A stretch of DNA of 64,000 bases from Kiritimatiellia bacterium (GCA_040767085.1 JAXGPF010000003.1:96001-160000), one strand, 5' to 3'. Positions 10,361-39,550 are shown, counted from the first letter of the stretch. Notes: a model not told the origin generated them from the sequence alone. Program-made: numbers and translations.

Positions 10361-10480
10361 GAGTCAGTTTCAAAAGTCTCGGACGACGTGGAAGTCGTCC
10401 CTCCAAAATGCAAAATCACTCCATTTTTGGAGGGTCGGGTTTCACCCCGACCTTTTTGTCAGGACTTTTGAAATTGGCTC
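10361..10480. mobile_element. 120-bp MITE, family A, copy 2 (inverted)
   Basis: Near-identical reverse complement of 5154-5273; CGTA on both flanks. Confidence 0.85.
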
Positions 10481-19458: not shown

Positions 19459-20502
19459 TCACTTCTTGAGCGTGCAGCACGTGTCTAGGCATAGCTCCAT
19501 TCCCGCCCTTGGTGAGGCCCCACGGCAAAGGTAACCGGCGCCAAAGGCGTCCGGTTGACCGCCTTGTTCGATGTTTTTTTCCATAAGCTCAAAAGTTATG
19601 CCATGCCTCTTAAATACCGGGTGTTCGGGTGGGTCGCCCGGCGCTATTTGAAAGCCGAGTTTACGGAAAAAGCTAATTGATGTATTTCGTGCAATGGTAT
19701 GAATCCGATGGCACATTCTGTCTGAGGAGATACGACATAGTTCGGCAACGAGACTCCGACCGACACCTTTGCGTTGATGGTTTGGAGCGACTGCCAGATG
19801 TCTCAGTTCAATTTCATTCCCGTTTGTCCATACTGCGACCAAGGCCCCAATTATCTGTTTGTTTTCTTTGGCCGCTAACTCAATTTTTTCACCGTCAATA
19901 TTGAAGTTGTTCCGTATATCACGGGGAAGACCGAGAGGCTGCCATAGGACACTCCAGAGAAGTTCATCGATTTCTGCGACGTTGCACGCTGTTTTCACAA
20001 TTTCAACAGATGTCTTGTTCGCTTTCTGACTGTCTCGTGTATGTAATTTTTTCTTTCCAGACCAGTACTTCAAACACTCACCTTCGCCAACATCCAAAAC
20101 ACACTCATCAAATATTTTATATCCTAAATGCTCATAGAATTGCTTTGACGGCAAAGATATGCTCAGACTGATCTCTGGAATCCCCTTTTTCATCGCTATT
20201 TGTTCAAGATTAGTCATTACGGATTCGCCGTATCCTTGCCGCTGATGATTGGGACGCACAAATACGCCGAGTATTTCAGAGCCTTTCAACGATCCGGTTG
20301 CCAGAATTGAAGCATCCCGTTCGGATGTAAGAACCAATATGTCGCCAACTGCACTCCGCTCGATAATGTTCTTCTCGGAATGGTGTTCTTTAAAGAATGC
20401 CACCGCACGTGGTGGATACACACCTGAATACGAAGCGTCAATAGTTTCGCAGATCATGCGGTGAAGAGCATGCAAATCAGTCCTCTTGAATGGACGAATC
20501 AT
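19459..20502 (-). CDS. Tandem two-domain GNAT acetyltransferase (gene cassette)
   Basis: Two acetyl-CoA motifs ([25 protein letters not shown]) and two FY/FF..LG motifs; reads through attC at the 3' end. Confidence 0.85.
19517..19572 (-). repeat. attC site, last of the array (non-canonical R')
   Basis: Minus strand ATCGAAC AAGGCGGTCAACCGG-ACGCC-TTT-GGCG-CCGGTTACCTTTGCC GTGGGGC; hairpin with extrahelical bases. Confidence 0.7.
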
Positions 20503-20528
20503 AGTTTTGACTTCCTTCACTACTTCTT

Positions 20529-20586
20529 GTCGAACGTCACCGTTCTCGCGCGGCTGTAAGCCGTCGCCAGGAACGGCTTGTTCGAC
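20529..20586 (-). repeat. attC site
   Basis: Minus strand GTCGAAC AAGCCGTTC...GAACGGTGAC GTTCGAC; 58 bp, just after the stop of 20592-21362. Confidence 0.85.
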
Positions 20587-20591
20587 CGTTT

Positions 20592-21362
20592 CTATTCCAG
20601 GATAAACATCGGTTCTGCGTTCAAGTCGGCCAAGACCGAGCTGGCGGACGCCTCTTCCTCGACTGTTCCGGAAATCGCCAGCCATACAGAACCTTCTGCT
20701 CCGCACACTCCGCCTGCCGCAACCAGTTCTGCTCGTGCGCCAGTGAGAATCGTGCATGCCTCCAGTTCCGTTACAACTTCTCCTGAAACTGGAAGCATCC
20801 GTGCGCCGACCGCGTCAGGTGCATTCAGGCGTGCGGCGATGCTGCTCAATTCGGCAGAGACACGCTTTTCGAGTCCGACAGGCAGGATGAGGCGCACGCG
20901 CCTTCCAACAACGGCCTGCAGTGCCGCCACGATTGTGCCACCTTTCGGATGCCCGATCAGTATGCCAGCCTGTTTCCGCACAAGGTCAACGGCATTTGCG
21001 CCCTTCAGAATGACATCACCTTCCTTCAGGGCATCAACAACGTCGAATATGGTCTTGCCCTTCAACCAAGCGCCTTTCTGGATCACAACATCACCCGGGA
21101 ATTGGCTCTCGTCTGGCAACCGACCGGTATCCGTCGTCTTCTCGCATGGTGGCAACGTGATTCCGCGGAAGAATCGTTGACGTGAGAACCCCTCCGCATT
21201 CCCGCATGCCGACAGCAACTCCTCGGCCACATATCCATTGGTCGTTCCAGCGACAACAACGACTGTGCCAGACTGAAGGGCCGTTCTGATTGCCGGGTGA
21301 CCCGTAAGGGCCTTCGCGATCAGTCGCTTTCCAGCAGCAGGGGTTACTATGGTCTGTATCAT
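20592..21362 (-). CDS. Conserved hypothetical protein (gene cassette)
   Basis: [49 protein letters not shown]; bounded by attC sites. Confidence 0.75.
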
Positions 21363-21383
21363 TTCATTTCTCCTATCTGTCGA

Positions 21384-21779
21384 ATCGGGATAGGGGGGGC
21401 GCCTCGCGGCGCCGCCCCTCCCACACCACCCGGCATGCGGATCACGCACCAGGCGATTCCGTGCGGTAACATATGCAACAAAGGTAGCCCTATCTCAACG
21501 AAATGTCGAGTCGGCAGCGCAATGCCCAGCCCGTCGCAACCCGGAAGTATGCCAGCCGTACAGGTAAGCCGCCAGTGCGCCGATTATCCGGCACATGCGG
21601 CATCCGCGAGTGGCTCGTCATCTCCCGTATCCTCGCCCTGATTCTCTCTGACTTTCGTTCTGATGGGCTGCCTCCCCATCCCGCCTCGCGACGACACAGT
21701 TGCCCTTTCGCTTCCCTTCGGCTTCTCCTTCACCTGGCGTGGGTACTTGCACCCACAAGTTACGTGCCATCCCCGGCAC
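21384..21779 (-). ncRNA. Internally deleted, ORF-less group IIC intron inserted in an attC site
   Basis: 5' GTGCCGGGGATGGCACGTAAC; 3' domain V/VI GAATCGCCTGGTGCGTGATCCGCATGCCGGGTGGTGTGGGAGGGG...CCCCTATCCCGAT; residual IEP-like C-terminus [15 protein letters not shown]. Confidence 0.85.
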
Positions 21780-21831
21780 GGTCCGGTTCAGCGGCGCGCT
21801 TTGGCGCGTCCGTTGCGACCGATTGTTCGGC
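21778..21831 (-). repeat. attC site split by the intron (remaining TCGAC at 21379-21383)
   Basis: GCCGAAC AATCGGTCGCAACGGACGCGCC-AAA-GCGCGCCGCTGAACCGGACC GT | intron | TCGAC. Confidence 0.8.
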
Positions 21832-22108
21832 TGTCTGTTTCTACAAAACGTCCCGCGGCATACCGGTGAAGAATGCTAGCCATGAGCGTCTGATAGGGCA
21901 GGCCATCCTCAACGGCAATCGCCTGGATTTCCTCCAAATCCTTGGATGAGATGCGAATATTGACACGCCTATTTTTGGCCTGCGTGTTCCGGGCGTAACG
22001 CACATGCCGGGCAATTTCTCGCTCACGGTTTGCAACTGGTTTCCACTCTCCGCGCTCGAAGGAGTCAAGAATATCCTGTTCTTCCTTATCAAGTTTCATT
22101 TTCTGCAT
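21788..22108 (-). CDS. Antitoxin, RHH/BrnA-like
   Basis: RVNIRISSKDLEEIQAIAVEDGLPYQTLMASILHRY; overlaps the upstream toxin gene. Confidence 0.82.
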   Translation of the reverse strand: MQKMKLDKEEQDILDSFERGEWKPVANREREIARHVRYARNTQAKNRRVNIRISSKDLEEIQAIAVEDGLPYQTLMASILHRYAAGRFVETDSRTIGRNGRAKARR

Positions 22109-22382
22109 GGTGCCCTCCCAAATATTCACGTGTTGCTTTTCGGCTGGGTATGATGGTCTTTAGAAATCGCCCGTCGTCGGATTCCGCGAACGGAACCACA
22201 TAGGCATATTCTCCGATGCGAACGACCAGAATCTGTTGTCCTGGATACCGTTCCTGATTCGGATGTTGGTAGACATCCAGAAGATCACCATTCTCGATAT
22301 GCATCACAACCTGCTCGAAGCTGATGTCACGTTCAACCTTGAGTTGCTCGTTTTTCTCTATGCTCCAGCGGTAGTAAGGCAT
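22089..22382 (-). CDS. BrnT-like type II toxin (toxin-antitoxin cassette)
   Basis: WSIEKNEQLKVERDISFE...FLKTIIPSRKATREY; own promoter-like TTGCCG-17-TAGCAT just upstream. Confidence 0.82.
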   Translation of the reverse strand: MPYYRWSIEKNEQLKVERDISFEQVVMHIENGDLLDVYQHPNQERYPGQQILVVRIGEYAYVVPFAESDDGRFLKTIIPSRKATREYLGGHHAENET

Positions 22383-22431
22383 GATTGAATGCTATCACAT
22401 TGTGTGCCTTGCGGCAACACATTTCTTTTTT

Positions 22432-22491
22432 GGCGAACGTCGCAAATCTGCCTCGGAGCGAAGCGACGTAAAATGCAGGCGCTGGTTCGGC
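22432..22491 (-). repeat. attC site
   Basis: GCCGAAC CAGCGCCTGC...GCAGATTTGCGAC GTTCGCC; 60 bp. Confidence 0.75.
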
Positions 22492-22501
22492 ATTCCCGTG
22501 C

Positions 22502-22960
22502 TTAGGGGACATACCACAGGCCGTCTGTGATGTTCGAGCCCCCCAAGTTCCCAAGCTGCGAGTCGTCCTTCCCTTTTACGAAGCCGATGAACCCGACGCG
22601 CAGCGTCGGGTGTAGGGCCACATAGGTTCGATCAGGCGAGACCCTGATGCGATCTGGGTTCATGTTGCGGATTGCCGCAGGAACATCCTCCCCGAGTGGC
22701 TTCCGCTTGCGGTCCCACATGACATCGGATCCGAAGGCCGTTGACGGCTGTGCCCATGCGTCCCAGAAGTGACGGTAATTCTGCGCCATTGAGCGACAGG
22801 CAGCGAGCAATTCGACATGATCCGCATTCGTGATGCGTTCGCGCTGTGCTTCGCGATCCCGCACGGCGTTGTTGGCGGTCATGTAGCACCACAGCACGAG
22901 CAGGAGGGGGGCGGCGCAGATGCCAATCCCGACGAGCCATTTCTGGTATCGCTTCTTCAT
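22502..22960 (-). CDS. Hypothetical protein with N-terminal membrane anchor (gene cassette)
   Basis: Single ORF between two attC sites; hydrophobic N-terminus. Confidence 0.65.
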   Translation of the reverse strand: MKKRYQKWLVGIGICAAPLLLVLWCYMTANNAVRDREAQRERITNADHVELLAACRSMAQNYRHFWDAWAQPSTAFGSDVMWDRKRKPLGEDVPAAIRNMNPDRIRVSPDRTYVALHPTLRVGFIGFVKGKDDSQLGNLGGSNITDGLWYVP

Positions 22961-22966
22961 CTCAAT

Positions 22967-23037
22967 GCCGAACGTCACGCCTCAACGGACGGCGAACCCG
23001 CCGCGGGTGAGCCGTACGGTGGAGGCGCTGGTTCAGT
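22967..23037 (-). repeat. attC site
   Basis: ACTGAAC CAGCGCCTCCACCGTACGGC...GCCGTCCGTTGAGGCGTGAC GTTCGGC; 71 bp. Confidence 0.82.
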
Positions 23038-23406
23038 GAATTCATTGCTGTGTTTTGACAGGTAAAGCATGACGATGATTCCAAGTATTGTTCCGATGGG
23101 GATGCTGAACAGCCACAGGACGGCGAGTATCCACATGGCCGTCTTGAACCATGCGGCTCGGTATCTCGCGCCAAAGAGCGCAACGAGGAGTAATACGGCC
23201 CCGATGAGCGACAAGACCATGCCTCCTGCGGTCGTATAAAGCGCAAGACTGATGTCAGATGCCAGAGCTTCGGGCTGGGCTTCGCTGTTCTTAGATAATT
23301 CGGCAAAAGCCCGCAGCATTCCGACGACTGTTCCTGCGATTCCGATCAAGAACCCAAATTGCAGGATTACACCCCATAGAGCCAGTTGCTTTCCGTTCTC
23401 TTTCAT
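22975..23406 (-). CDS. Small membrane protein, MotA/TolQ/ExbB channel-like (first cassette of the array)
   Basis: GFLIGIAGTVVGMLRAF...LASDISLALYTTAGG; RBS GAGGAG. Confidence 0.7.
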   Translation of the reverse strand: MKENGKQLALWGVILQFGFLIGIAGTVVGMLRAFAELSKNSEAQPEALASDISLALYTTAGGMVLSLIGAVLLLVALFGARYRAAWFKTAMWILAVLWLFSIPIGTILGIIVMLYLSKHSNEFTEPAPPPYGSPAAGSPSVEA

Positions 23407-23415
23407 ACTCTCCTC

Positions 23416-23503
23416 ACCGAACAGTATTATTGAGCCTACTTCGCGAATACTGACGGGGCGCATGTGATTATGTATTTATAAATCACATGTGCGCTATTGT
23501 CAA
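23416..23503 (-). promoter_or_regulatory. attI-like site with cassette promoter, copy 1
   Basis: TTGACA(23503-23498)-17-TATAAA(23480-23475), then CGAAGTAGGCTCAATAATACT-GTTCGGT; 24 bp identical to 31964-31987. Confidence 0.7.
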
Positions 23504-26103
23504 ATGCTTAATCCAGCGCCGGATGGTACATTCTCAAATACCTTTAGCGCATCCCGCCGCGTTATGACCGTGTCGTAAAGACCGATGTCCTCGCCCTCGT
23601 GTTTGTTGATGCCGGTGTATCTCAGGCTGGAGTCTTCGTAACGCTTGAACTTGTAAACCGCGTCGTTCATCAGGGCGCTGTTGAACACGCCCAAGCTGAC
23701 CAGCAACTCGAAGTCCTTGACGGTGAGCCCCGTGACTTTCCTGAAGAGGCCGGGTTCAAGTTGTGTAATGACGTCCTTCAGGGTCCGCTCGCGGTAATCG
23801 GTCAGGTACATGAAGATGGGAATCCGCGTGGCGAATTTGATGAGCTTCTCCTGAATCTGTTTGCGCAGGCTCTTGTATTCCTTCTCCTCCTGCGAAAGCT
23901 CCTTCTTTTCTTCCGCGGAAAGCTTCTCGTCGTTGGCTTCCTTGCGCGCTTTCTTGACGGCCTCGGACTTGTTGATGATCGTCGCGATGTCTTGGTTCAG
24001 ATTGCGGAAACCCTCGATGTTCATCAGGGCGTCCATCGCCTTCTTATCAGCCATCAGGCGGCGCAAGGTGTCGTTATCCACATTGACCAGGAGGGCGCTT
24101 TCCCAGCGCCGCGCCAGCAATGTGGCCGTCGTACCGCTCATGGCCATGTCGAGAATCCCGGCGGCATCAATCTGTTTCATGGAACTGCCGTCGTAAGCCA
24201 GCACCGGCAGGAAACTGATGAACTCCTCGACCTTCTTTTCCGGGTTGACCTCATTCAAGTTCAACCGGCAACTGTAATCGGCAATCTGGCGCAATGCCCG
24301 ATCGGGGGCGAAGTCGAAGACGTAGCATTCTTCCTTGATGATCTGCTCGGTGTTCGGAGATGCGCCGTCCGGGTTGCGCACCGTCCAGGGGGATTGCACA
24401 CGGAACGCCGCTTGAAAATATGTTTCCGGGCTCGACGAGTTGCGCAAAATGAGAATACCCGTCCACGGTTTCACTGTCACTCCCGTGGTCAATTTGCCGC
24501 AGGAAAGCGTGATGGTCCTGGTGGCGAGCGGATCGTCCATCGCTTCCAGCACAGGCGGCAAGGCCGCGGCGCCGATCCCGGCGGCGCTTCCCGCCGCCAC
24601 GATGATCTTGTAGTCGTGATAGAAGCGGTTTTGCCTCTTCGCCAGCAGGTTTCGCATGGCATGACAGGCCGCCACGCTGGGCAAAAACCAGAAGGAATGC
24701 GAAAGCACTCCCAGGAGCCGGACATCCGAGAACGGCATCGGCGGCTTTTGCGCGCCCAGTTTCAGGTTGTCCACACTGGCCGGCATGAACGCGCCGCGAA
24801 TCAGGTCCAGCCATTTCTGCACTTCTTCCGCGTACCTGAATTTCGCCTTGTCCCCAATGCCCTCGGCGGAGAAGAACACATTCAAATCGAACTCATTGAA
24901 CTCACCCTGCATGGCGATATCCCGGATCGCGTCGGGCAGTTGGTATGTCAAAAGCACCATTCGGGGCAGCGGGGCATATGGGTTGTTTGGGCCGTTCCAA
25001 TACCGCTTGGCGCGCTGCTCGTCGGAATACGTCCAGTTGTAAATCTGCTCTTCAATGAACTCGCCCGACGCAATGGCCCGGAACGGCGTGCCGGACAGGT
25101 AAAGATACCCGTCCGTGGTGATCGGCATGATCGTTTCATCAAAATCCTCGATGCCTTCGCCCTCGGCGAATTTTCGTTCCTTTTCATCCTCCGACTCGAA
25201 AAGCTCCTTTGCGTTTTCGCGCCAGGCTCCGTAATGGTACTCGTCCAGAATCACGCAATCCCAATGCGTGGTGTGGACCCATTCGTTCTTGGTCTTGATG
25301 CCGCCGGTGCTGGGGTTGCGGCCCAGGTAGTCCTGGAATGAGCCGAAGCAAACAAAAGGCTTTTTCTTGTCCGCTTGCTCATAGGTCAGGCCGCCCGGCT
25401 TGATGAACTGCCAGCCCCGGAAGTCAACATGGCATTTCAAGTCTTCTTCCCAAGCGCTTTGAACGGCGGGCTTGAAGGTCAGAACCAGCACCTTTCGCCA
25501 GCCCATTTTTTTCGCCAACTGATACGCAGCAAAAGTCTTGCCGAAACGCATCTTGGCATTCCAGAGGAAATGCGGCGGCTTGTCCCGGTTGCTTTTGTCA
25601 TTGCGCCAACTGGCGAAATAGGCGGCCGTCTTCTCGACCGCCGCGACCTGTTCCGGGCGCATTTGGAAATCCAGCGACCGATTTTCCTCGTTCAATTGCC
25701 CGGTCCGGACTGCGATGATCGCCGACTTGACTTGGGCCACCGTGCAACGGAACCATTCTCCGTCGGGGTTCTTGATGCCGTTAACCCGCAGCATCCGGTG
25801 CACGTCGTGGTCTGTGAACACCGTCCCGTCATTCCGCATGGCGGATTCTTCGAGAACGATCCGGTACGGCGGCCGGCCGGGCTTCTTTGTCGGATACTGC
25901 TGGGCGACGCGGCCTTGGGCATTCACGGTTGTGTAGCCGATTTTGAGCAGCCCCGCATATTGTGGGTTCGTGTCCTCGTAGGCGTAGATTGTCGGCCTCG
26001 ATGCCGGGCGCGGAGGAAAGAACTCCGGTTCATCCGCAAATGAACGCGAATGAACGCCAATAAGGGAAGAGCCTTTCTTTGATTCGAGTCTAATCGCGCT
26101 CAT
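23500..26103 (-). CDS. T5orf172/GIY-YIG-like nuclease fused to SF2 helicase (restriction-like subunit)
   Basis: IYAY..LLKIGYT..RVAQQ..GEWF N-domain; Walker A AKMRFGKT, DEYH, LSGTP, YFQAAFRVQ. Confidence 0.85.
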   Translation of the reverse strand: MSAIRLESKKGSSLIGVHSRSFADEPEFFPPRPASRPTIYAYEDTNPQYAGLLKIGYTTVNAQGRVAQQYPTKKPGRPPYRIVLEESAMRNDGTVFTDHDVHRMLRVNGIKNPDGEWFRCTVAQVKSAIIAVRTGQLNEENRSLDFQMRPEQVAAVEKTAAYFASWRNDKSNRDKPPHFLWNAKMRFGKTFAAYQLAKKMGWRKVLVLTFKPAVQSAWEEDLKCHVDFRGWQFIKPGGLTYEQADKKKPFVCFGSFQDYLGRNPSTGGIKTKNEWVHTTHWDCVILDEYHYGAWRENAKELFESEDEKERKFAEGEGIEDFDETIMPITTDGYLYLSGTPFRAIASGEFIEEQIYNWTYSDEQRAKRYWNGPNNPYAPLPRMVLLTYQLPDAIRDIAMQGEFNEFDLNVFFSAEGIGDKAKFRYAEEVQKWLDLIRGAFMPASVDNLKLGAQKPPMPFSDVRLLGVLSHSFWFLPSVAACHAMRNLLAKRQNRFYHDYKIIVAAGSAAGIGAAALPPVLEAMDDPLATRTITLSCGKLTTGVTVKPWTGILILRNSSSPETYFQAAFRVQSPWTVRNPDGASPNTEQIIKEECYVFDFAPDRALRQIADYSCRLNLNEVNPEKKVEEFISFLPVLAYDGSSMKQIDAAGILDMAMSGTTATLLARRWESALLVNVDNDTLRRLMADKKAMDALMNIEGFRNLNQDIATIINKSEAVKKARKEANDEKLSAEEKKELSQEEKEYKSLRKQIQEKLIKFATRIPIFMYLTDYRERTLKDVITQLEPGLFRKVTGLTVKDFELLVSLGVFNSALMNDAVYKFKRYEDSSLRYTGINKHEGEDIGLYDTVITRRDALKVFENVPSGAGLSI

Positions 26104-26109
26104 TCGCGT
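26034..26109. repeat. Short-period palindromic repeat (CGCGAATGAA type) overlapping the helicase start
   Basis: CCGCAAATGAACGCGAATGAACGCCAAT ... ATTCGAGTCTAATCGCGCTCATTCGCGT. Confidence 0.7.
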
Positions 26110-26951
26110 TTCCCTATCCTCGACTGCTTTCCCGCCGGCGGCAGGAAGTTCTCGCCGGTCACTACCTTGCGCCCCGTCTTCTGCTCCAACTCCCGCCGCG
26201 CCCGTTTGGCGATGCGTCCGCCTTTCTTCCCGGCCTCGGCATTTTCGCCCATGCCGATCGCTTCCACGCTTTCGGCGATCTGGCGGGTGGACAATTCCGC
26301 CAGCGCGGTGAAGATCAGCTCCGCCTCGCTCATGTGATCACGCAGGTTCTGCGCCTTGAGCCCTTTAATAGCCTTATGCTTCTTGACCGAAACCCCGCTC
26401 CATTCCTGGTGGATGATATTGGTCAGGATGGAATATTCCTCCTCGCCTTTGATCTCGTGGTCCTGCCAATAATCGGTGAGCTTGTTGCGGGTTTCCTGCC
26501 CCATCATCCGCTGCTGAATCCATTTCTCGCTGCGGCCGTGCTTCTTCCAGTATTCCCGTGCCCGGTCCAGCGACCGCACCGGGTCGCTCATGTCCTGGAT
26601 GCGCTCATACCCTACCTTGGCCAGCCAGAGTTTGATCGGTTCTGCCCTGGGACTGGGGACGGATTGAATAATCCGCAGAAGTGTTTCAGGGTCAGCAACA
26701 TCCGTCAGATAGGATTTTCCGTCAGCCGCAGGCAGTTTCAGTCGGTTACATTTTGTAACCGACTCACTTCCCTCGCTTTTAAGCCGGTTTTTCAGGACTT
26801 TCCAGTAATTGCGGGCGGCCTGATAGTCCGGTTGCTGGATCAGCGCCGCGACGATGTCCACCACGGAGAAATACCAGGTCTCCGACTTCTTGTCGTAAAC
26901 GCGCCGGATTTTGAAATCCTCAAAGACAGCCAATGCTTTTTCGTTTGTCAT
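26100..26951 (-). CDS. Bro-N domain (antirepressor-like) protein
   Basis: IRRVYD...WYFSVVDIV...ARNYWKVLKNRL...LRIIQSVPSPRAEPIKLWLAKVG. Confidence 0.85.
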   Translation of the reverse strand: MTNEKALAVFEDFKIRRVYDKKSETWYFSVVDIVAALIQQPDYQAARNYWKVLKNRLKSEGSESVTKCNRLKLPAADGKSYLTDVADPETLLRIIQSVPSPRAEPIKLWLAKVGYERIQDMSDPVRSLDRAREYWKKHGRSEKWIQQRMMGQETRNKLTDYWQDHEIKGEEEYSILTNIIHQEWSGVSVKKHKAIKGLKAQNLRDHMSEAELIFTALAELSTRQIAESVEAIGMGENAEAGKKGGRIAKRARRELEQKTGRKVVTGENFLPPAGKQSRIGKRE

Positions 26952-26967
26952 GGTTGACCTGCCGAAT

Positions 26968-27150
26968 TATCCACAGATGACGCAGATTTTTGCAGATTAT
27001 TTTCGGTGGATCCGGTATCTGCGTTAATCCGTGGAATCAGCGAATTATTCATCTGCTTCATCCGGAATGATTATCCGCAGATGGCGCAGATTTTCGCAGA
27101 TTATTTTCGGCGGATTCCGGTATCTGCGTTAATCTGTGTAATCTGTGGAT
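26968..27150. repeat. Tandem palindromic units built from about 9-nt GCAGAT repeats
   Basis: CCRCAGATNRCGCAGATTTTYGCAGATT...ATCTGCGTTAATC twice; same unit at 33001-33130 and 34577-34750. Confidence 0.85.
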
Positions 27151-27152
27151 TA

Positions 27153-28758
27153 TTATGCCTGCTCATCGACCCCGCTTTCCGCCTTGTCATTATCCGCTGG
27201 CATTGGGCGGACAATGGAGGAAATAAAATCAATCTCAGCCTGCGTTAGCTTGAAATGCTTGTTAAGTTTGTCATCAGTCCATATTTCTGTCATTGGAAGT
27301 TGAGGAACGAAGGCGAACCGCTCCTTTGTGATATGTTGCGTGTTTTTCCGCAATCCAACCAAAAATCGGAAGAAGTGGGTTCGCATGTACGCAGCAAGGT
27401 GTTCTGCCTCGTCCTTTGTCTTGTATGACCCAATGACGATGTAAGTTTCCGTACAGGCACTGGGCGGGCTTGCCACAATAGGTTTGCCCATAATCATTCG
27501 AGGGTATTCCCGGGCTTCGCCGCCTTCGGACTTCCAGCGTGATCGTAACCCACATATGATGTCAATAACCTTCCAAAGATCAATCATATCGACGCCAACA
27601 GTAATGTCTGATTTCGGATCTTTTGGCCCTACTCGCCATTTCTGCCAACGCAAAATAATTTGATCACCTTGTCCTTCTGAGGCCGTCACGTAAGTTCTAA
27701 GTCCAAAATGGTTTTTGTCTAGCAGACACTTGCTCGCTCATGCGACAAAGAAGGATCTTTTCTTGACAAGGACCCTTCGTCCAAATGATTGGGAAACAGC
27801 CTTATTGAAGCGAGCAAACGTATGAAAGTCGGAAACTCGTTGAGAGGTAAGCGTAGTCGAAACAACGTCGTTCATCGTTATGCACGTTCGTGACTTCGAG
27901 CAAGGTCCACGAGTAATCACGCTCCCATAAGAAATAACATATTCCATCCGCTATAACCTTGACACCGGGAAATACGTCGGAAGCAATCGGATAATCAACA
28001 AGATGAGAGATACGTCGGTCGTGTAGCATTGCATCTCGGAACTCGTCAAGACCTTTGCCGCCAGCGAACCAGCGTGAGGGTATTATCATGGAAAGGAAAC
28101 GAGGGTTCAGCTTCTTGGCTTGCTCAACGAAGCGATTGTAGATGGGGGATGCCCCTGTGCTTTCGCCTGCATCACTCAATTGGTACGGTGGATTACCGAT
28201 AATTACATCAAATTTCATTTTGAAAATTCCCTCATGTTTGTCGGTGTGGATGAACTCATATGCATGGCTTTCATACTCTCGCCCGCGGTCGTACTCCTCC
28301 TTGCTGGCGCGACAAAACACACAACGGCCATTTACCCATGTGTGTTCCACTCGCCCGAAACGGATGTTGCCGGCGGGCTTGTCAAACAACTCACAGACGG
28401 AATATTTGCCGTTGGCGGTCTTGGAGCAATAGACGGAGCGGCGCGACAGCAGAGCGGTCAGTTCCGTAATTGCGAGCCCGTAGAGTTGATTTTTGAAGAT
28501 GTGGTTCATGCGCTGCAGGCGGTCAGGAATCTGGGCCTCCAGCCCCTTGTCCAGCCGCTTGGCGATCTCGCGCAGAAATACGCCCGACTTGCAACCGGGG
28601 TCAAGAAAGGTGGCTGTCTTGTCGCTCCAAAGTTCCTGCGGCAGCAGGTCCAGAATCCGGTTCACGAGTTGCGGCGGCGTGAACACCTCGTCACTACTCA
28701 AGTTGGCGATACAAGACAGCACATCCGGATTATAGTTGTCTGTGTTCATCTGCGTCAT
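27153..28758 (-). pseudogene. Eco57I-like adenine DNA methyltransferase, frameshifted (decay or indel errors)
   Basis: [29 protein letters not shown]-terminal CTETY...RFLV..RKNTQH in another ORF (27153-27689); breaks between about 27500 and 27950. Confidence 0.8.
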
Positions 28759-29194
28759 CCGCAGACCTCCTCTGTTTCAACCGCAGATAGCGCAGATGAA
28801 CGCAGATTGTAAACAAAGCGCTTGTACTCGAGTCGGATAGCGCCAAAGTTGATCAGCAGAGCTTTGTGCAGCCTGGATGCTTTCAGGTAGTTGATCACTT
28901 GTGCCTCCTCCGTCCCGAAAGCTGCTTCAGCGCCTTGAGTTCGACAATCACCGCTCCGGAGCAAACGTAATCGGCTTTGTAGAACGTGTTCAATGGCTTA
29001 CCGCGATAGAACACCGGCAGTTCCTTTTCGCGTTCGTAAGGGATGCCCCTGAACCGAAACTCGCGTTCCAGCGCTTCCTGATAGACTGCTTCCAGAAAGC
29101 CAGACCCAAGGTCTGAATGCACGGCCATAGCTGCTCCGATTATCGCGTATGTCTCCGCATCTTTATTACCGTTATCTGCGTCAATCTGCGTCAT
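28755..29194 (-). CDS. GxxExxY family protein (one frameshift near 28915)
   Basis: [25 protein letters not shown]...ADY...IVELKA, continuing as [11 protein letters not shown]...LLINFG in the next frame; the break is in a G run. Confidence 0.88.
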
Positions 29195-29852
29195 CTGCGG
29201 ATTCCTTTTTCCCCAACTCCAGGAAATGCATGGGCGGATATTCGCGGATTGGCGTTGGGATGAAGACGTCTTCCCCCAGATCGGAGAAAAGCGGCAGTTC
29301 CTTCATGCCCTCGTGCGTCAGCAGTCCGTGAAACGTGAAGTCCCTCCGTTTGAGCATGCTGCCGTTGACCGGCGACCATTCAGAAAATACGATATAATCC
29401 GGTTTTTTGCCGACTGTTTTCAAGGTCAGGGCGTCGCCCCAGATGATATTGCGCCCAAGGATGAAACGGACCGCCTCGCGGCATTTGTTCTTGGCGCGGT
29501 CCTCGAACAGCCGGGAATAAAAGTCACAATCGAACACGCCAAAAAGCCGGTGCCGGCACTGGTGGACATTGTCCTCCAGGATGTCAATGCCGTAGATCGA
29601 AGAGACGGCCAGGACGGCATAACGCTCGAAGTCCAGTTGCGACTTGCCGTAGCGCTTTTCCACCACGGCGAGTTTCCGTTCCAGAATGGCCGTCAGGAAA
29701 TTCCCATTGCCGCAAGCCGGTTCGAGGAAGCGGGAATCAATCCGGTCCGTTTCCTGTTTCACGAGGTCGAGCATGGCGTTGACCTCGCGTTTGCCGGTCA
29801 ACACCTCGCCATGCTCGGCGACCCGCTGTTTCGATATGACTTGCGATTCCAT
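29181..29852 (-). CDS. Short SAM-binding DNA-methyltransferase-like protein with no visible catalytic motif IV
   Basis: RVAEHGEVLT, FLEPACGNGNFL, IYGIDI, NIIWGDAL; no NPPY/DPPY. Confidence 0.8.
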   Translation of the reverse strand: MESQVISKQRVAEHGEVLTGKREVNAMLDLVKQETDRIDSRFLEPACGNGNFLTAILERKLAVVEKRYGKSQLDFERYAVLAVSSIYGIDILEDNVHQCRHRLFGVFDCDFYSRLFEDRAKNKCREAVRFILGRNIIWGDALTLKTVGKKPDYIVFSEWSPVNGSMLKRRDFTFHGLLTHEGMKELPLFSDLGEDVFIPTPIREYPPMHFLELGKKESADDAD

Positions 29853-29936
29853 CTGTGATTTATTTTCGTGGCCTGACTCACTCAGAAGCGCCATTTCACG
29901 TATCACCAGCAGGCTCGATGCTCTTGTTCGAGCGCT

Positions 29937-30107
29937 TTATACAAACGAGTCGCAATACTTCTGCCATTTCTGAGCCAAGAACTGCAACCTGCCTTGCTTG
30001 TAGACCGCCTTTTTGCTGTTCGTCTGTTGCGCCATATGAATGACATCGAGAAGAGTGTTTGCTTCTTTTTTAGAAATGTCGAGCTTGTAATATTTCTGTG
30101 ATGACAT
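29937..30107 (-). CDS. Small hypothetical protein
   Basis: MSSQKYYK... preceded by GAGGTGGG; no recognised motif. Confidence 0.35.
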   Translation of the reverse strand: MSSQKYYKLDISKKEANTLLDVIHMAQQTNSKKAVYKQGRLQFLAQKWQKYCDSFV

Positions 30108-30296
30108 ACCCACCTCTAACACCGGCTGCGGAATTGGGGCCTGTTTCAGTTTCGGCACAATAACTACGCGAGGTATTATGACTCTTTCGTTAAGGACGAT
30201 AAAACGATATCATCCAGCAAGTCCTCTGCGATCACGTTGGGTTGGGAAATCAGAGCTTCATATTCTTTTCTGGTCATCTTTTATCCTTTTGCTCGA

Positions 30297-30434
30297 ATCA
30301 GGATAGAGGGGCGACTCGCGACTGCCTCCCCACCCCGCCTCGTGACGACGCAGTTGCCCTTTCGCTTCCCTTCGGCTTCTCCTTCACCTGGCGTGGGTAC
30401 TTGCACACCACAAGTTACGTGCCATCCCCGGCAC
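30297..30434 (-). ncRNA. 138-nt group IIC intron remnant inserted in an attC site
   Basis: First about 110 nt nearly identical to the 5' end of 21384-21779, joined directly to CGCGAGTCGCCCCTCTATCCTGAT (domain VI end); domain V absent. Confidence 0.8.
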
Positions 30435-30498
30435 GCTCAGGCGCACCGGACGCCTGAAGCGACAGCGGAAGGCGGTACGGTGACGCCTGTTGTTCGGT
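30433..30498 (-). repeat. attC site split by the intron remnant (remaining TCGAG at 30292-30296)
   Basis: ACCGAAC AACAGGCGTCACCG...CGGTGCGCCTGAGC GT | intron | TCGAG. Confidence 0.8.
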
Positions 30499-30502
30499 TC
30501 GC

Positions 30503-31138
30503 TCATTCCATCAAGATTGCTGCAAGACCTTTTTCAGGATCCAGTATGAGTCCCGCCAGAGCGAGGAGCAATGCCAAACCCTGGCAGATGACGAGTTTGT
30601 TAGTCCAATAGCGCCGTTGCGCCTTCAGGTGCAGAATCCCGTGCTCGGTTTGCTTCACCATGCTGAAAAAGCTATGACTGGCAGTTCCAAGCAGGGCTAC
30701 CCTGCGAGCAGAGAGTTCGCGAGCTCTGTTTGCCCAATCAGTCGGCAGCGGTTGAACCAATTCGTCGGGCGGAGGCTGGCGGATTGAAGCGAGGAGAAGA
30801 CAAATTGCCTCAGTCATGCTTTCGAGATAAGCGTGTGCTGAGGCCGCTTCCATTTGGCGAACATCGGCGACGTCTTTGTCAGACTTGAGGACTTGGAGTA
30901 TCCGCTTCGCCTGTGCACTCGAAACGCTCTGCCAACTGACATCGGCTGCGCGAGCCACCGCCTGATTCGCCTCCGTATGGGCGATTCTCAGGTCAGCAAT
31001 CAGTTTTTCCTTCTTTTCGATTCTACTTTCAAATAATAGAGGCACGACTGAAAAGCCGACCGTGGCAACGAGCAAGAGCGCCGCGGACGCTACGAGGCAC
31101 AGAATGTGGATCAATGGGATTGCTTCGAGTGCTGTCAT
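30503..31138 (-). CDS. Hypothetical membrane protein (gene cassette)
   Basis: N- and C-terminal hydrophobic segments; bounded by attC sites. Confidence 0.65.
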   Translation of the reverse strand: MTALEAIPLIHILCLVASAALLLVATVGFSVVPLLFESRIEKKEKLIADLRIAHTEANQAVARAADVSWQSVSSAQAKRILQVLKSDKDVADVRQMEAASAHAYLESMTEAICLLLASIRQPPPDELVQPLPTDWANRARELSARRVALLGTASHSFFSMVKQTEHGILHLKAQRRYWTNKLVICQGLALLLALAGLILDPEKGLAAILME

Positions 31139-31157
31139 CCTTTCATCTTTCTCTTGA

Positions 31158-31217
31158 ACCGAACGTCGCAAATCAGCGGCGCGGTTTACCGCGTACGCTG
31201 GATTTGTCTTGTTGGGT
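31158..31217 (-). repeat. attC site
   Basis: ACCCAAC AAGACAAATCCAGCGTACGCGG-TAAA-CCGCGCCGCTGATTTGCGAC GTTCGGT; 60 bp. Confidence 0.85.
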
Positions 31218-31943
31218 TTCTCCATCTGTTGCGGTTGGAATGGCCTTGATTGCCTTCACACGTTGATCGTACTCGTACAGCGTGACCTTTATCTTCTGTC
31301 CTGTGTTGTCGCCTATGTATTGCGCGGCCGCGGCAAGCATGACGGGGAACACCTTTCTCAGGTCACCGGAAGAACCTGTGCTGAAGATGTCTGTCTTCCA
31401 AACCTGTTTCTCCTCTTCTGCCTTGCGGTACGCCGCAAGATCTAAAGCGTTGAGAGAAATGTAGCGGGTGAAGGTGACGTATGTTCCTGAGTATTGTCTG
31501 GAACCTACCACTCCATAGGTTGGGGTATGTGTTGTCGTCCCGGAATAGGTTGCGCTGTTTCCGTAGGAATACAGGGAACCGTATGTGTGCGACGAGGAGA
31601 CTCCAGTTTGCCCGTAAACGGGAGTCGAGTAGCTGTATTGATGTTGGGAAGGGTCAGAAATGTCGTAGTAGAGAAAGATGGCAATGTCAGCTTCGTCAAG
31701 ACCATCGGTCTTGATGAAGCCCTTCTGCTCAAGGGCACGATGGGTGTATGTTGCGAACTCCTGAAACTGGAGATCACCAGGGTTCACGCCCTTCTTTCCT
31801 GGAAACAAGAAGTACTTCCGGGCTGTGGGTTGGCCAGAACTGATGGAATCGATTCTTACATCGTAATGCGGCATCGTGGCGCAGCCAGAGCAAACCAGTA
31901 CAATCATCATTGGTACGATGGCCCATGACATGAAGTTCTTCAT
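31173..31943 (-). CDS. Lipoprotein, DUF4136-like (first cassette of the upstream array)
   Basis: Lipobox VCSGC; RBS GAGGAG; reads into attC. Confidence 0.75.
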   Translation of the reverse strand: MKNFMSWAIVPMMIVLVCSGCATMPHYDVRIDSISSGQPTARKYFLFPGKKGVNPGDLQFQEFATYTHRALEQKGFIKTDGLDEADIAIFLYYDISDPSQHQYSYSTPVYGQTGVSSSHTYGSLYSYGNSATYSGTTTHTPTYGVVGSRQYSGTYVTFTRYISLNALDLAAYRKAEEEKQVWKTDIFSTGSSGDLRKVFPVMLAAAAQYIGDNTGQKIKVTLYEYDQRVKAIKAIPTATDGETQQDKSSVRGKPRR

Positions 31944-31959
31944 TCTCTTGTCTCCTCAA

Positions 31960-32048
31960 ACCCAACAGTATTATTGAGCCTACTTCGTGAAATCTAACTG
32001 GCCGCATATAGCTGTGTCTTTTATAACCACAATGGTGGCCATTGTCAT
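31960..32048 (-). promoter_or_regulatory. attI-like site with cassette promoter, copy 2
   Basis: ATGACA(32048-32043)-17-TATAAA(32025-32020), then CGAAGTAGGCTCAATAATACT-GTTGGGT; the GTTGGGT is complementary to the cassette's own ACCCAAC. Confidence 0.72.
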
Positions 32049-32597
32049 ATATTTAATCTATTGACTATCAACTGATTATCCTGATCGCCTGCCTTCAAGA
32101 TCGGCTTTATGCATATCCATGAATTAGGCTTTATGCCGACAAACATCATAATCTGGATCAATGTAATTCATAAAGACTACCTGGAACGCTTTCTCGAAAA
32201 TATTTGATTATTTTAGGGATAGCTCCATTTTTTCAACACAGGCGCACACTGCTCGCAGTCAGATTACCTCAAAGCCATCCCCCATCTCAACGAAATGTCG
32301 AATCGGCAGCGCAAAACCAACGTTCATAACGCAATCCTGATTTATATCATTCGAACCGGATTATTAATTTATAGGACTGACCCCCTCTGTCTGACAAACG
32401 GTCATAGATGGGCTTGCCAGCGCGATAGTACGCCAAATGTTGGACAAAACTGACAACCAGTGGGTACTGGTTTCGGAATATGTCGGAATCGTATTTCATT
32501 CTTTGACACAACGTCGCGAGTCACCGGACAGTGTAAGACGCGCTCCGGCGTAGCGCACAGGGTCACAGGCGCACATGGTCAGACCTCAAATTAAAAC

Positions 32598-32828
32598 TTA
32601 ATATCTCATCCGCCGTGCCGCTCCAATGAGTTTATGTCTAACAATCGCCCGGCTGCCGCCACCCAACGCGCCCGTGTTTGATATTCCAATCTGGAACATC
32701 AAACGCGCAACATCTTGCTCGGGAATGGCGAACATATAATCTAGAGGGAACCGACCGCAGTTTCGTGCTACCGCTTTGTTGAGGTCTCCGTTGACTGCGT
32801 CGATTTCCTCTGTGGTTTCGATCTTCAT
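32598..32828 (-). pseudogene. ORF6N-domain fragment
   Basis: LNKAVARNCGRFPLDYMFAI...LMFQIGIS...GG. Confidence 0.6.
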
Positions 32829-32984
32829 CGCTCTGGCAGAACAACATTATCCAGCATTTTTTTAAATATAGATCAATCTCAGAAAATCGGCAATAAAATA
32901 ATTTTGATAAGTTCATGGATAACAAGTAATTATTACTAATTAGCATTGGGTGTTAATAACTTTACCCGGGCGCAGATGCACGGT

Positions 32985-33131
32985 CATCCACAGAAGATTT
33001 ATCCGCAGATTACGCAGATTTTCGCAGATTATTTTCTGAGGATCCGGCATCTGCGTTAATCTGCGTAATCTGTGGATTATTTCTCTGCTTCATCCGGAAT
33101 GATCATCCGCAGATTACGCAGATTTTCACAG
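32985..33131. repeat. GCAGAT palindromic repeat unit
   Basis: One full unit of about 104 bp plus the start of a second, matching 26968-27150. Confidence 0.85.
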
Positions 33132-33141
33132 GCACGTGTGA

Positions 33142-33726
33142 TCACCGCCGCGGTTTACCGCGTACGCCGGATTTGCTTTTTTGCGCTTTTAATTTCAGAC
33201 GTTCCCGAATTTGTTTGAATTGGTCGCGCATGCCTTCGGCGACAGACCATCTTTCGATTTCTTTGATGTCTATCTTATTATTGCAGGCTACGGCAACCGC
33301 TTGGTCAAGGCACTGTCGATCATGATCGTGATAGAACCAAGTGAGTCTGTCTTTGACACAGTCGGTGGGCGATATGATCAGGAGCATTCCAGTGGCTGTT
33401 TTAATCTTTAGAATGTCCTTAACAGGTTCTTCCCCGACGGCTGGGGGGCCTTGAGGAAACTCGATAAACAGGTCGGTATCCGGGTGTTTGAAATATCGTC
33501 CGTTTTCGGAAAATCCCAGTTCCTGCATTGCCGCGCGAAGCTCGCTGCGCTTGGGTGCCATTAGCGCAGTGTGTATCAGGTCCAAGTCCATTGACAGATA
33601 TTTCCCCCGGCTGTAGATTGAGACACAGGCCCCGCCGGACAGCACCACGTCTATGCCTCTGACGCGCAGGCGCTCCTGTATGAAAGCGGCAAGTTCCGCT
33701 CTGTCCATTTCGCTGATTGACTTCAC
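33142..33726 (-). CDS. Nucleotidyltransferase-fold protein (possible toxin of a TA pair)
   Basis: VVLSGGACVSIYS...SMDLD (GG..DxD); ends in an attC remnant. Confidence 0.7.
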   Translation of the reverse strand: MKSISEMDRAELAAFIQERLRVRGIDVVLSGGACVSIYSRGKYLSMDLDLIHTALMAPKRSELRAAMQELGFSENGRYFKHPDTDLFIEFPQGPPAVGEEPVKDILKIKTATGMLLIISPTDCVKDRLTWFYHDHDRQCLDQAVAVACNNKIDIKEIERWSVAEGMRDQFKQIRERLKLKAQKSKSGVRGKPRR

Positions 33727-34052
33727 AATGGTTTTCCAAGACGCCTGGGCCTGCGCCTGTTCATAATAAGTTTTTCTTTCAAGTCTTCAGGACAGAACGT
33801 CATCACCTTGACAAGAAGATTTTTAAGCTCCGCCAGGAACGGACAACGAGGATTGAATGAATACAACCTTGTCCGTCCGACAGACCGGCTGCGGAGAATG
33901 CCTCCGATCTCAAGTCGATCAAGCTGGTTTCGAATAGGCTTGTAATCAACGCCGAAAAAACGTGCTATTTCGCGTGGATAACCCTCTCCGCGGGCTGAAA
34001 TGAACAACAAGACTTGTTCGCAACTTCTTGAACCAACCAAATATTCCAGCAT
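33723..34052 (-). CDS. Winged-helix (ArsR-like) DNA-binding protein
   Basis: YPREIARFFG...IRNQLDRLE.GGIL.SR.VGRTRLY; 4-bp overlap with the downstream gene. Confidence 0.8.
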   Translation of the reverse strand: MLEYLVGSRSCEQVLLFISARGEGYPREIARFFGVDYKPIRNQLDRLEIGGILRSRSVGRTRLYSFNPRCPFLAELKNLLVKVMTFCPEDLKEKLIMNRRRPRRLGKPL

Positions 34053-34469
34053 TGGCCATACTCCTCAACCTTGCATTAATTGATGTCATGCATGCATCAC
34101 ATGATGCACTATTTACATCAATATACATCGGACATTTTTAACACGCAAGATTATTCTACCTGAATTTTGCACCGCGCAAGTTTGGCGCAGGGCGCGGCGC
34201 GAGGGGTGCCGCTGTATAAATATACCGCAAATCCCCGAGCAACAAAGCCCTGCACCAAAAACTTGTCCGCCATAGTCGGACGGCGGCGGATCGCGCGGCT
34301 GGCTGCCGGCGAATATTGGTGTTTCCGGAAAATTTACTTGTGTAACCATATGGGTGATAGCAAATAACTGTGCAAATATTAATTTGCACTCGCTATGATT
34401 GCTTTAAATCATTTCAACACCAATATTCGTGCAAAATTCAGGTTCTACAGAATTCCTGGTTCTGCCATT

Positions 34470-34544
34470 ATCCTGGTTTTTAACCAGCCGGTCGTTGATG
34501 TATTTATGCAGGACGCTCGACAACAGCGTTTGGTACGGCATCCC
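34470..34544 (-). pseudogene. C-terminal remnant of a second RHH antitoxin
   Basis: GMPYQTLLSSVLHKYINDRLV matches GLPYQTLMASILHRYAAGRFV of 21788-22108. Confidence 0.65.
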
Positions 34545-34576
34545 TTTACAGGCGCACAGGGCCAGACTTCAAATTA

Positions 34577-34750
34577 GGATTACGCAGATTTTCGCAGATT
34601 ATTATCAGAAGATCCGGCATCTGCGTTAATCTGTGAAATCTGCGGATTATTTCTCTGCTTCATCCGGAATGATCGTCCGCAGATTACGCCGATTTTCGCA
34701 GATTATTATCAGAAGATCCGGAATCTGCGTTAATCTGCGTAATCTGCGGA
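34577..34750. repeat. GCAGAT palindromic repeat, nearly two tandem units
   Basis: Same unit and same linker TTCTCTGCTTCATCCGGAATGAT as 33001-33130. Confidence 0.85.
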
Positions 34751-34893
34751 TTATTTCTTCCCATTGGACGCGTGGCGGTCAAGAGCCTGACCGTTCTACC
34801 AAATTCAGGACAATTACGAAAATATTAATAAGTCGGAACAGACGGCTCACGGCACGTTCGCCCTCCAGCGGAAGCAGAGCGGGACGGGGGCCG

Positions 34894-34976
34894 GTCCTGA
34901 GCTTGTCGAATGGGCGTCCCGGCTCCAACGGGAACAGAGTGCGAAGAGGGCTTGTCCTGAGCTTGCCGAATGGGCG
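34894..34976. repeat. REP-like GTCCTGAGCTTG(T/C)CGAATGGGCG, two direct copies
   Basis: Copies near 34894 and 34954; related reverse copy CCCTCGACAAGCTCGGG near 41124-41141. Confidence 0.65.
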
Positions 34977-36212: not shown

Positions 36213-36227
36213 ATATCACGCCCTCTC

Positions 36228-36285
36228 GTCTGTGTCATCCGCGGATTATTTTTTATCCACAGATTACGCAGATTTTCGCAGATTA
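36228..36285. repeat. GCAGAT repeat arms, partial unit
   Basis: TCTGTGTCATCCGCGG...CCACAGATTACGCAGATTTTCGCAGATT. Confidence 0.7.
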
Positions 36286-36483
36286 TTTTACCTGAATACG
36301 GCAAACGGAAAATCCTCTCACCCGCCTTCGTCAAGACTACGGTGGGCAAGCCCAAGCCACCAAGAAAGCACCAGCAGGAACTGCCGCATAGCAGCATGTT
36401 TTCCTTCACCGCTCGTCCTTCGTGGCTTAGTGTCTTTGTGAGATAATAAAGCGGGTTTCCACGGGAAGTTACTGAACCTGAAT

Positions 36484-37860: not shown

Positions 37861-38051
37861 GGCAAAACCTCCTATGATAGCATGATTGCCTCATTCCCGA
37901 GCGGAAAAGAGGTAATATTTCTTATAGCAAACTGCCCTGCTATGTCAAGCAATAACCGCCAATCTGTCGTAAACAAATGACTTGGCCGCATAATTAACAA
38001 ATGATTTGTCCGCTTAAAGCTGTCAGGATGGTGCATTCAAAGGGGGGTTAT

Positions 38052-39236: not shown

Positions 39237-39237
39237 A

Positions 39238-39266
39238 CTTTTTCCTCCCCCGCGGGGGAGGAAAAT
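39238..39266 (+). terminator. Hairpin after the transposase stop
   Basis: TTTTCCTCCCCC-GC-GGGGGAGGAAAA perfect inverted repeat. Confidence 0.55.
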
Positions 39267-39380
39267 CCTCACCCCAGGAGCAACAACACACAATAACAAA
39301 TCGGACAGATCACTTGTTACAAAAAGCGGACACTTGACTTGTTACGAACAGCAATAACCGCCAATCCGGTGATGCTTGGT

Positions 39381-39515
39381 GTAGTAGTCCGGCTTTGCCG
39401 GACATCCCAGATTCCTGATGCGCCACGCAGTGGCGCTGCTACAACCGGAGCCGGATGCGCCACGCAGTGGCGTTGCTACAACCGGAGCCGGATGCGCCAC
39501 GCAGTGGCACCGCTA
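39381..39515. repeat. GTAG-type REP cluster (37-bp tandem units)
   Basis: GATGCGCCACGCAGTGGCGYTGCTACAACCGGAGCCG at 39417, 39454 and partial at 39491, plus opposing GTAGTAGTCCGGCTTTGCCGGACATC at 39381. Confidence 0.8.
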
Positions 39516-39550
39516 ATAACCGCCAATTCGGTGATGCAGCATACTGGCGC

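Follow-up and report, generated by a model that had tools for sequence, protein, structure and literature searches.

Two cassette arrays without an adjacent integrase gene, each behind a putative promoter and attI-type site, in a Kiritimatiellia bacterium

The DNA analysed here is a window of 64,000 nucleotides (nt) from a Kiritimatiellia bacterium (GCA_040767085.1, JAXGPF010000003.1:96001-160000; positions are counted from the first letter of the window). Two copies of a short module stand in it on the same strand, 8.5 kb apart. Each copy consists of a promoter-like site and a 24-nt core, the putative left half of an attI-type integron insertion site, and each is followed by an array of gene cassettes. 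The copies are called head 1 (array A) and head 2 (array B) below, and their parts are as follows.

23420-23443, minus strand: core of head 1, left half of a putative attI-type site; crossover between 23422 (G) and 23421 (T)
23475-23503, minus strand: promoter-like site of head 1; -35 box TTGACA at 23498-23503, 17-nt spacer, -10 box TATAAA at 23475-23480
31964-31987, minus strand: core of head 2, left half of a putative attI-type site; crossover between 31966 (G) and 31965 (T)
32020-32048, minus strand: promoter-like site of head 2, a putative cassette promoter (Pc); -35 box ATGACA at 32043-32048, 17-nt spacer, -10 box TATAAA at 32020-32025
32098-32182, minus strand: accessory repeat boxes of head 2; direct box AGGTAGTCTTTATGA at 32168-32182, inverted boxes GCATAAAGCC(TA) at 32122-32136 and 32098-32112

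It was found that the 24-mer CGAAGTAGGCTCAATAATACTGTT occurs exactly twice in the window, without a mismatch and both times on the minus strand, as a preliminary description of this DNA had reported. No further copy with up to three mismatches is present in the window (the chance expectation was 0 in 100 shuffles), and a search of the window by nhmmer with an alignment of the five heads treated in this study found no additional head. Written up to the crossover, the core reads CGAAGTAGGCTCAATAATACTG|TT. In the alignment of the two copies, 24 of 24 core columns are identical, as are 47 of the 71 columns from a GATTAA, which lies 8 nt before the -35 box, to the core. The flanking DNA shows background identity, with 18 of 53 columns on the upstream side of the module and 22 of 60 on the downstream side. 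Beyond the GTT, copy 1 continues with TTCGGTGAGGAG...ATG and copy 2 with TTGGGTTTGAGGAG...ATG, leading into different genes. The similarity described earlier does run upstream through the promoter and does end at the GTT. The core is followed after 4-16 nt by a GAGGAG ribosome-binding site (RBS) and then by the ATG, at 23406 for copy 1 and at 31943 for copy 2. The possibility that an assembly artefact explains the duplication had also been raised; it is unlikely, since the identity is limited to 24-28 nt and the flanks are different.

The -10 box lies 31-32 nt from the 24-mer in both heads. The 867-amino acid (aa) T5orf172/ResIII open reading frame (ORF) at 23500-26103 ends with a TGA (23500-23502) that lies within the TTGACA of copy 1 (23498-23503), which is the overlap of a -35 box with a helicase stop codon noted previously. 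Upstream of the head 2 promoter, the two inverted boxes at 32122-32136 and 32098-32112 are the only exact matches of GCATAAAGCC in the window, and boxes of the AAGTAGGCTTTATGC type are confined there to 32098-32182. By eye, 11 of 15 positions agree between AAGTAGGCTTTATGC and the left half of the core, AAGTAGGCTCAATAA. The boxes may be extra integrase-binding sites, by analogy with the attI1 accessory repeats; sites for a regulator are equally possible.

The following cassettes and flanks make up the two arrays, together with a third array that has no head.

22973-23421, minus strand: cassette A1; 143-aa MotA/ExbB-like ORF at 22975-23406 (PF01618, E=5e-14); attC at 22967-23037, 65.6 bits with the covariance model (CM)
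22438-22972, minus strand: cassette A2; ORF without assigned function from 22502 to an ATG at 22960; attC at 22432-22491, CM 48.5 bits
21779-22437, minus strand: cassette A3; BrnT-like toxin at 22089-22382 and CopG/BrnA-like antitoxin at 21788-22129; attC at 21773-21831, CM 54.3 bits
21668-21780, minus strand: conserved flank ending array A, the same 114-nt element as at 30322-30435
31164-31965, minus strand: cassette B1; 256-aa lipoprotein-like ORF at 31173-31943; attC at 31158-31217, CM 62.3 bits
30434-31163, minus strand: cassette B2; membrane-protein-like ORF from 30503 to an ATG at 31138; attC at 30428-30498, CM 60.8 bits
30322-30435, minus strand: conserved flank ending array B, 114 nt; starts at the last attC crossover, CG|TGCCGGGGATGGCACG...
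19514-20589, minus strand: third array, without a head; attC at 20526-20589 after a 285-aa ORF at 20592-21449, and a double-GNAT cassette ORF at 19459-20502 with an attC at 19514-19575

The genes behind head 1 are unrelated to those behind head 2, and no cassette is common to arrays A and B. The B1 ORF has no Pfam or NCBIfam match, the B2 ORF is in frame with an ORF listed at 30503-31225, and the Pfam matches of the A3 pair are under the curated cut-offs (PF04365, 23.5 bits; PF12441, 25.3 bits). Every cassette gene or gene pair closes with an imperfect palindrome of 60-70 nt that runs from ..CGAAC to ..ACG|TTCG.. These palindromes were analysed as attC sites in an alignment of 10 sites, 5 from the window and 5 from the related loci described below, from which the CM was built. 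The consensus shows the classical attC shape, in which unpaired spacers accompany an R-box stem and an L-box stem, the latter with a single bulged column. Pairing is found in 86.7% of the cells of the alignment; column shuffles gave 69.3%, with none of 500 reaching the real value, and sliding the partners gave 27-43%. Of the 9 L-box pairs, 8 show compensatory change. The bottom-strand DNA folds of six sites gave z=-4.0 for B1 (0 of 200 shuffles as good), z=-3.05 for A1, three values from -1.7 to -1.9, and -0.18 for a degenerate site. The CM recovers all 10 training sites and, in addition, two sites on which it was not trained, namely those of the third array at 20526-20589 (43.2 bits, E 4e-10) and 19514-19575 (26.6 bits, E 2e-5). 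These two and the five attC sites behind the heads have the same orientation.

The insertion point was assessed by a crossover test, in which the target G and the first six bases of a cassette should equal the reverse complement of the R'' box of the same cassette. In the window, the starts of B1 (GTTGGGT), B2 (GTTCGGT), and A2 (GTTCGGC) are exact complements of their own R'' boxes (ACCCAAC, ACCGAAC, and GCCGAAC, respectively). A1 (GTTCGGT, with R'' ACTGAAC) and A3 agree at 6 of 7 positions. The right junction of the last attC is G|TGCCGG in both arrays (B2 and A3). Over the 11 cassettes of the window and the related loci, 8 are exact and the other three have 6 of 7 positions, whereas only 7 of 110 mismatched pairs are exact; the total was reached by none of 100000 random re-pairings. 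For the five cassettes that come first behind a head, 34 of 35 positions are complementary to their own R'', a score attained by 1 of 120 permutations, the identity. One related locus, L002, may have a second attC (R'' GACGAAC, by eye); the CM did not report it, and these counts exclude it. Since the cassette starts complement their own R'' boxes, the conservation of the heads ends precisely at an integron-type crossover, ...AATACTG|TT. The earlier claim that each copy heads an array is thus borne out by attC-bounded cassettes, as judged by the CM, folding, covariation, and R'' pairing.

Both arrays end on the same element. The two flanks are 96.5% identical over 114 nt, and both begin exactly at the last attC crossover, CG|TGCCGGGG. 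On the simplest reading, this flank (TGCCGGGG...) would be the right half of the original attI site and its flank, pushed outward by successive insertions. Alignment of the 114-nt flank with the end of the third array and with that of the degenerate attC (33141) showed no real similarity. When the cassettes are left out, the order is head 2, flank, 7 kb of other DNA, head 1, flank. The window therefore holds two integrase-less units in tandem, each a platform plus its array that would be complete from the head through the cassettes to the putative right half, and a third array without a head.

Is the module found elsewhere, and does it lie beside an integrase gene? One 20-mer from the core was used for an exact-match scan of 185,579 species genomes; it gave 7 loci, whose 2-kb flanks were fetched. 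Three of the 7 have the same layout as the window heads (-35 box, about 57-61 nt, core, RBS, ATG): L002 from a BRC1 metagenome-assembled genome (MAG), L003 from a Lentisphaerales MAG, and L006 from a Verrucomicrobiota MAG. In all three, attC sites follow and obey the same cassette rule. The block C.CGAAGTAGGCTCAATAATACTGTT.G, 26 columns ending at the GTT, is invariant in 5 of 5 heads from 4 genomes, and head 1 shares 28 identical nt (23418-23445) with L003 and L006. All five heads have a TTGAC-type -35 box whose start lies 59-63 nt ahead of the 20-mer. Boxes of the AAGTAGGCTTTATGC type precede the promoter in head 2, L003, and L006, the direct box at about -200 and the inverted boxes at about -155 and -130 from the core. 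The gene upstream of the head encodes a DUF2397 protein in L003 and a DUF1294 protein in L002. The heads aside, attC sequence is the only DNA common to the window and the related loci; the L002 attC is 92.6% identical to attC B1 over 54 nt, which suggests a common cassette pool.

L006 carries an integron integrase gene on the strand opposite to the head (ORF 345-1571; TIGR02249 at 358.7 bits with a cut-off of 265, PF00589 and PF13495). It is divergent from the head, and the start of its longest ORF is 428 nt from the core. The preliminary description had proposed looking for the motif beside intI in relatives, and L006 is such a case, with the motif at the place expected of an attI. The association with array starts, which had been named as a further check, is seen as well: the motif precedes the first cassette in all three related loci. 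In the longest integrase ORF, the integrase domains leave out the first 98 residues, so that the true start may be internal. A 64-aa ORF without a family match (1593-1787, minus strand) stands between the integrase gene and the head, and the second cassette of L006 (2541-2981, plus strand) encodes a weakly GIY-YIG-like protein (E=5e-4).

The other four loci were rejected as heads and put down to chance: an 873-aa oxidoreductase ORF contains the match in L005 and in L007, an ABC ATPase ORF contains that in L004, and in L001 the match is intergenic and has no GTT behind it. BLAST with the 36-nt core region gave matches at chance level against plasmids (6 records, best E=0.3, none spanning 80% of the query) and against phages (2 records, E=5).

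The statement that no tyrosine recombinase ORF adjoins either copy was found to hold for the whole window. No tyrosine recombinase was found at E<=1e-5 among 47 scanned ORFs, which come from 52 non-overlapping ORFs of at least 110 aa (the 5 omitted are antisense to longer ORFs or overlap them), and tblastn with the L006 integrase against the window gave no homologue (best E=3.6). The arrays can be classed as attC clusters that have no integron integrase (CALIN), with two or more attC sites on the same strand and no integrase in the vicinity, where the window ends lie 19.5 kb and 32 kb from the arrays.

I consider it likely that each copy is a promoter plus an attI-type site at which an integron integrase inserted these cassettes. 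The integrase acting on the heads was, or is, presumably encoded outside the window, and both promoter activity and integrase binding at the heads are predictions from the sequence. In the proposed mechanism, the integrase would bind the double-stranded core, and probably also the upstream AAGTAGGCTTTATGC boxes. The core would then recombine at G|TT with the folded bottom strand of the attC of a circular cassette. The cassette would thereby land directly downstream of the promoter, bringing its own RBS, and a transcript begun about 25 nt ahead of the core would run across it into the cassette. Successive insertions would have produced array A (MotA/ExbB-like, unknown, and BrnT/BrnA cassettes) and array B (two cassettes), and would have displaced the original right half, TGCCGGGG..., to the far end of each array.

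That the heads are currently served in trans is a tentative proposal, short of an even chance and about as probable as the fossil reading given below. On the side of activity, the promoter hexamers, RBSs, and ORFs are intact, the core is perfect beside a drifted promoter, and no cassette occurs in both arrays. A wider version is rather unlikely. In it, head and integrase gene would be unlinked, so that several heads, each expressing a short array of its own, could depend on one integrase. Integrase-mediated attI x attC or attI x attI co-integration would spread the heads together with kilobases of defence genes, and the 28-nt core in the BRC1, Lentisphaerales, and Verrucomicrobiota MAGs would mark a cross-phylum system in which heads outnumber integrases.

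Several results weigh against reading the two copies as promoter-bearing attI-type sites. No integrase gene lies beside an insertion site in the 64-kb window, tblastn with the L006 integrase detected none in the 2 kb around the core of L002 or of L003, and adjacency to intI, the usual criterion for attI, is seen in only 1 of 5 heads. The relatives rest on exact matches to one 20-mer in one collection. A promoter and terminator scan reported neither head site; both have TATAAA as the -10 box, and they were missed because the scan demands a T at position 6. The upstream boxes are absent from head 1 and L002. No empty site without an insertion was seen, and the right half is conjectural, with GTG instead of the canonical GTT. 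Frumerie et al. 2010 (PMC2811028) report near wild-type recombination when the second or third nucleotide is altered in one partner, so that the GTG would not be disqualifying. Furthermore, the identity is 96.5% for the flanks and 66% for the promoter parts, a difference for which a simple duplication does not account. The surroundings are rich in gene fragments and in repeats like repetitive extragenic palindromes (REP), and have the look of a decaying island.

The heads could be fossils, left by one or two ordinary integrons whose intI was deleted or separated, with arrays that were filled earlier and are now inert. I regard this as a substantial possibility, though not an even chance. It fits the origin of CALINs by rearrangement or integrase loss, as given in the sections of Cury et al. 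2016 (PMC4889954) cited in this study. Head 1 is cut to about 95 nt, abuts the helicase gene, and has no boxes. Methylase genes in the island are split, and REP-like repeats and a fragment that by eye resembles ORF6N are also present there; the third array has no head, the degenerate attC (about 33141-33190) no longer folds (z=-0.18), and the integrase is absent from the window. However, the core has remained 24/24 while the promoter drifted to 47/71, which indicates that the core stayed under constraint or underwent gene conversion. The -35 and -10 boxes are intact in both heads, as are the ORFs and RBSs of all cassettes. Insertions continued after the heads had separated, because the two arrays share no cassette and yet lie between the same halves. 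Finally, four of the five heads have no intI next to them, a high number if accidents were the cause.

A second alternative concerns the DNA between the two units, which comprises the following features.

23504-30321, minus strand: segment between flank B and head 1; defence-type genes, no attC match with the CM
29181-29906 and 27802-28758, minus strand: pieces of a methyltransferase gene, split by a PDDEXK_3 ORF at 28895-29194
27153-27689, minus strand: 178-aa ORF
26100-26951, minus strand: Bro-N/PDC-S13 protein
23500-26103, minus strand: T5orf172-helicase

This 7-kb segment thus carries pieces of a type IIG restriction-modification system, a PDC-S13/Bro-N protein, and the T5orf172-helicase. 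A mobile attI-bearing segment (23422-30433, about 7 kb), with the module and the 114-nt flank as its ends, might have been co-integrated into an existing array by an integrase, through attI x attC or attI x attI recombination, so that arrays A and B would be one split array; I consider this possible but unlikely. The cassette-free order does show a segment bounded by two directly repeated sites, recombination between two attI sites is a subject of published work, judging by titles, and identities of 66% for the heads and 96.5% for the flanks are as expected if the heads had different origins. Since the heads diverge far more than the flanks, separate origins of the heads are favoured. On the other hand, the ORF scans of the window found no replication, transfer, or recombinase genes in the segment, no circular or empty form was seen, and the resulting structure would be the same as that of tandem platforms, indistinguishable by sequence. 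The two units could therefore have arisen by duplication of a platform or by co-integration of an attI-bearing segment, between which the sequence cannot decide.

The two remaining alternatives are very improbable. The cassettes might have been inserted at ordinary genomic GTT sites behind promoters, as attG-type secondary sites; the excerpted text of Loot et al. (bioRxiv 10.1101/2022.09.11.507474) does describe cassette insertion outside att sites and expression near a promoter, but the sites it describes share GWT and short motifs within about 18 nt, whereas here 24-28 nt are identical at five sites in four genomes, with a conserved promoter distance, related upstream boxes, and one copy beside intI. 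The core might also have nothing to do with attI and be a conserved 5' leader, a regulatory RNA, or a promoter cassette that lacks an ORF but has an attC, as its place in a predicted 5' untranslated region, 4-16 nt before a GAGGAG-type RBS, would allow; but Rfam gave 0 matches in the window at the gathering score and none on the heads at E<=1 over 20500-36500, both leader RNAs fold no better than shuffles (z=0.04 and 1.0), the attC CM matches neither head at E<=5 with filters off, the conservation stops exactly at the crossover, and the boxes lie upstream of the promoter, outside any transcript. The 5 weak Rfam matches at E<=1 in 20500-36500 lie on the REP-like palindromes or are unrelated, all far under the gathering score.

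Some further features were observed around the arrays. In the region of the third array (19514-21522), the last attC also ends G|TG. A 31-nt repeat (97%) at 21492-21522 and 32284-32314 resembles an attC tail joined to the TTCGAC start of the 285-aa cassette, and its second copy sits upstream of the head 2 boxes. At 33141-34052, a helix-turn-helix protein (PADLOC PDC-M05A, E=9e-10) and a 194-aa ORF are followed by the degenerate attC (about 33135-33200), of which 27 nt are 96% identical to attC B1 and which is joined to TGCC and then to REP-like repeats. This region is possibly a remnant of another array upstream of head 2.

Palindromic units of about 104 nt, built of ATCTGCG heptads and often in tandem pairs, occur at 26966-27161, 32998-33153, 34568-34762, and 36229-36303, with half units at 28733-28777 and 29169-29213. 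They look like REP elements or miniature inverted-repeat transposable elements and not like attC sites (no match with the attC CM). Two sets of them flank a 411-aa ORF without a family match (34977-36212). The DNA methyltransferase gene appears to be split into an N-terminal piece (29181-29906) and an Eco57I-type catalytic piece (27802-28758) by the PDDEXK_3 ORF of 99 aa; the half units flank this ORF and point to a small mobile insertion. Within 57981-59104, an ORF of 336 aa with a match to a REP-associated tyrosine transposase (RAYT; E=8e-16, under the cut-off) lies between 29-nt inverted repeats (57981-58009 and 59076-59104) that differ from the ATCTGCG palindromes. Inverted repeats of 120 nt, 96% complementary and 5 kb apart (5154-5273 and 10361-10480), enclose four ORFs, one of 1079 aa and three of about 270 aa, none with a family match. 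The stretch 38001-39524 holds an ISNCY-family transposase gene (352 bits) followed by three tandem 37-nt repeats at 39414-39524.

Compared by layout alone, the heads resemble attI1 and Pc of class 1 integrons in a putative promoter placed to read through the insertion site, a G|TT crossover, a conserved left side with a cassette-owned right side, and, for head 2, L003, and L006, candidate repeats upstream; DR1 and DR2 are the integrase-binding repeats of attI1, according to the passages of Ghaly et al. (bioRxiv 10.1101/2022.02.06.479319) used for this comparison. They differ from it in having no adjacent intI, in being two heads 8.5 kb apart, in a promoter outside any integrase gene, and in a right half that is apparently GTG. 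With CALINs they share 2-3 attC sites per array on one strand and no nearby integrase. The CALIN is defined by attC alone, while each of the window arrays A and B keeps its own promoter-like site and insertion site. The same sections of Cury et al. 2016 (PMC4889954) state that CALIN arrays may still be served by an integrase elsewhere, that Pc cannot drive the cassettes of a CALIN, and that the attI of most integrons is not known and cannot be made the object of a search. Heads of the present kind would have escaped notice for this last reason.

The putative archaeal attI sites, as described in the cited passages of Ghaly et al. (bioRxiv 10.1101/2022.02.06.479319), are also an attI-type sequence conserved across distant phyla with a canonical insertion point, but they immediately adjoin intI, while 4 of the 5 heads here have no integrase in the available DNA. 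As with attG (Loot et al., bioRxiv 10.1101/2022.09.11.507474, again from the excerpted text), the cassettes are away from the integrase and near a promoter; attG sites are diverse and minimal, whereas the present core is long, specific, and conserved across genomes. A search of the literature, with supplements outside the search, found no account of integrase-less attI heads or of this core.

The known attI sequences belong to few classes, and integrase-less clusters have hence been treated as headless and silent. The present data provide a defined core of 24-28 nt with accessory boxes and a promoter-like site, common to three phylum-level lineages. It is predicted that integrase-less cassette clusters can retain a head for capture and expression, here twice in one locus. 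The core is a handle for surveys and for work on a non-proteobacterial integrase. If the heads are used in trans, the unit of the integron would be a genome-wide set of docking sites rather than an intI-attI pair, and the ways in which cassette arrays are found, counted, and interpreted would change.

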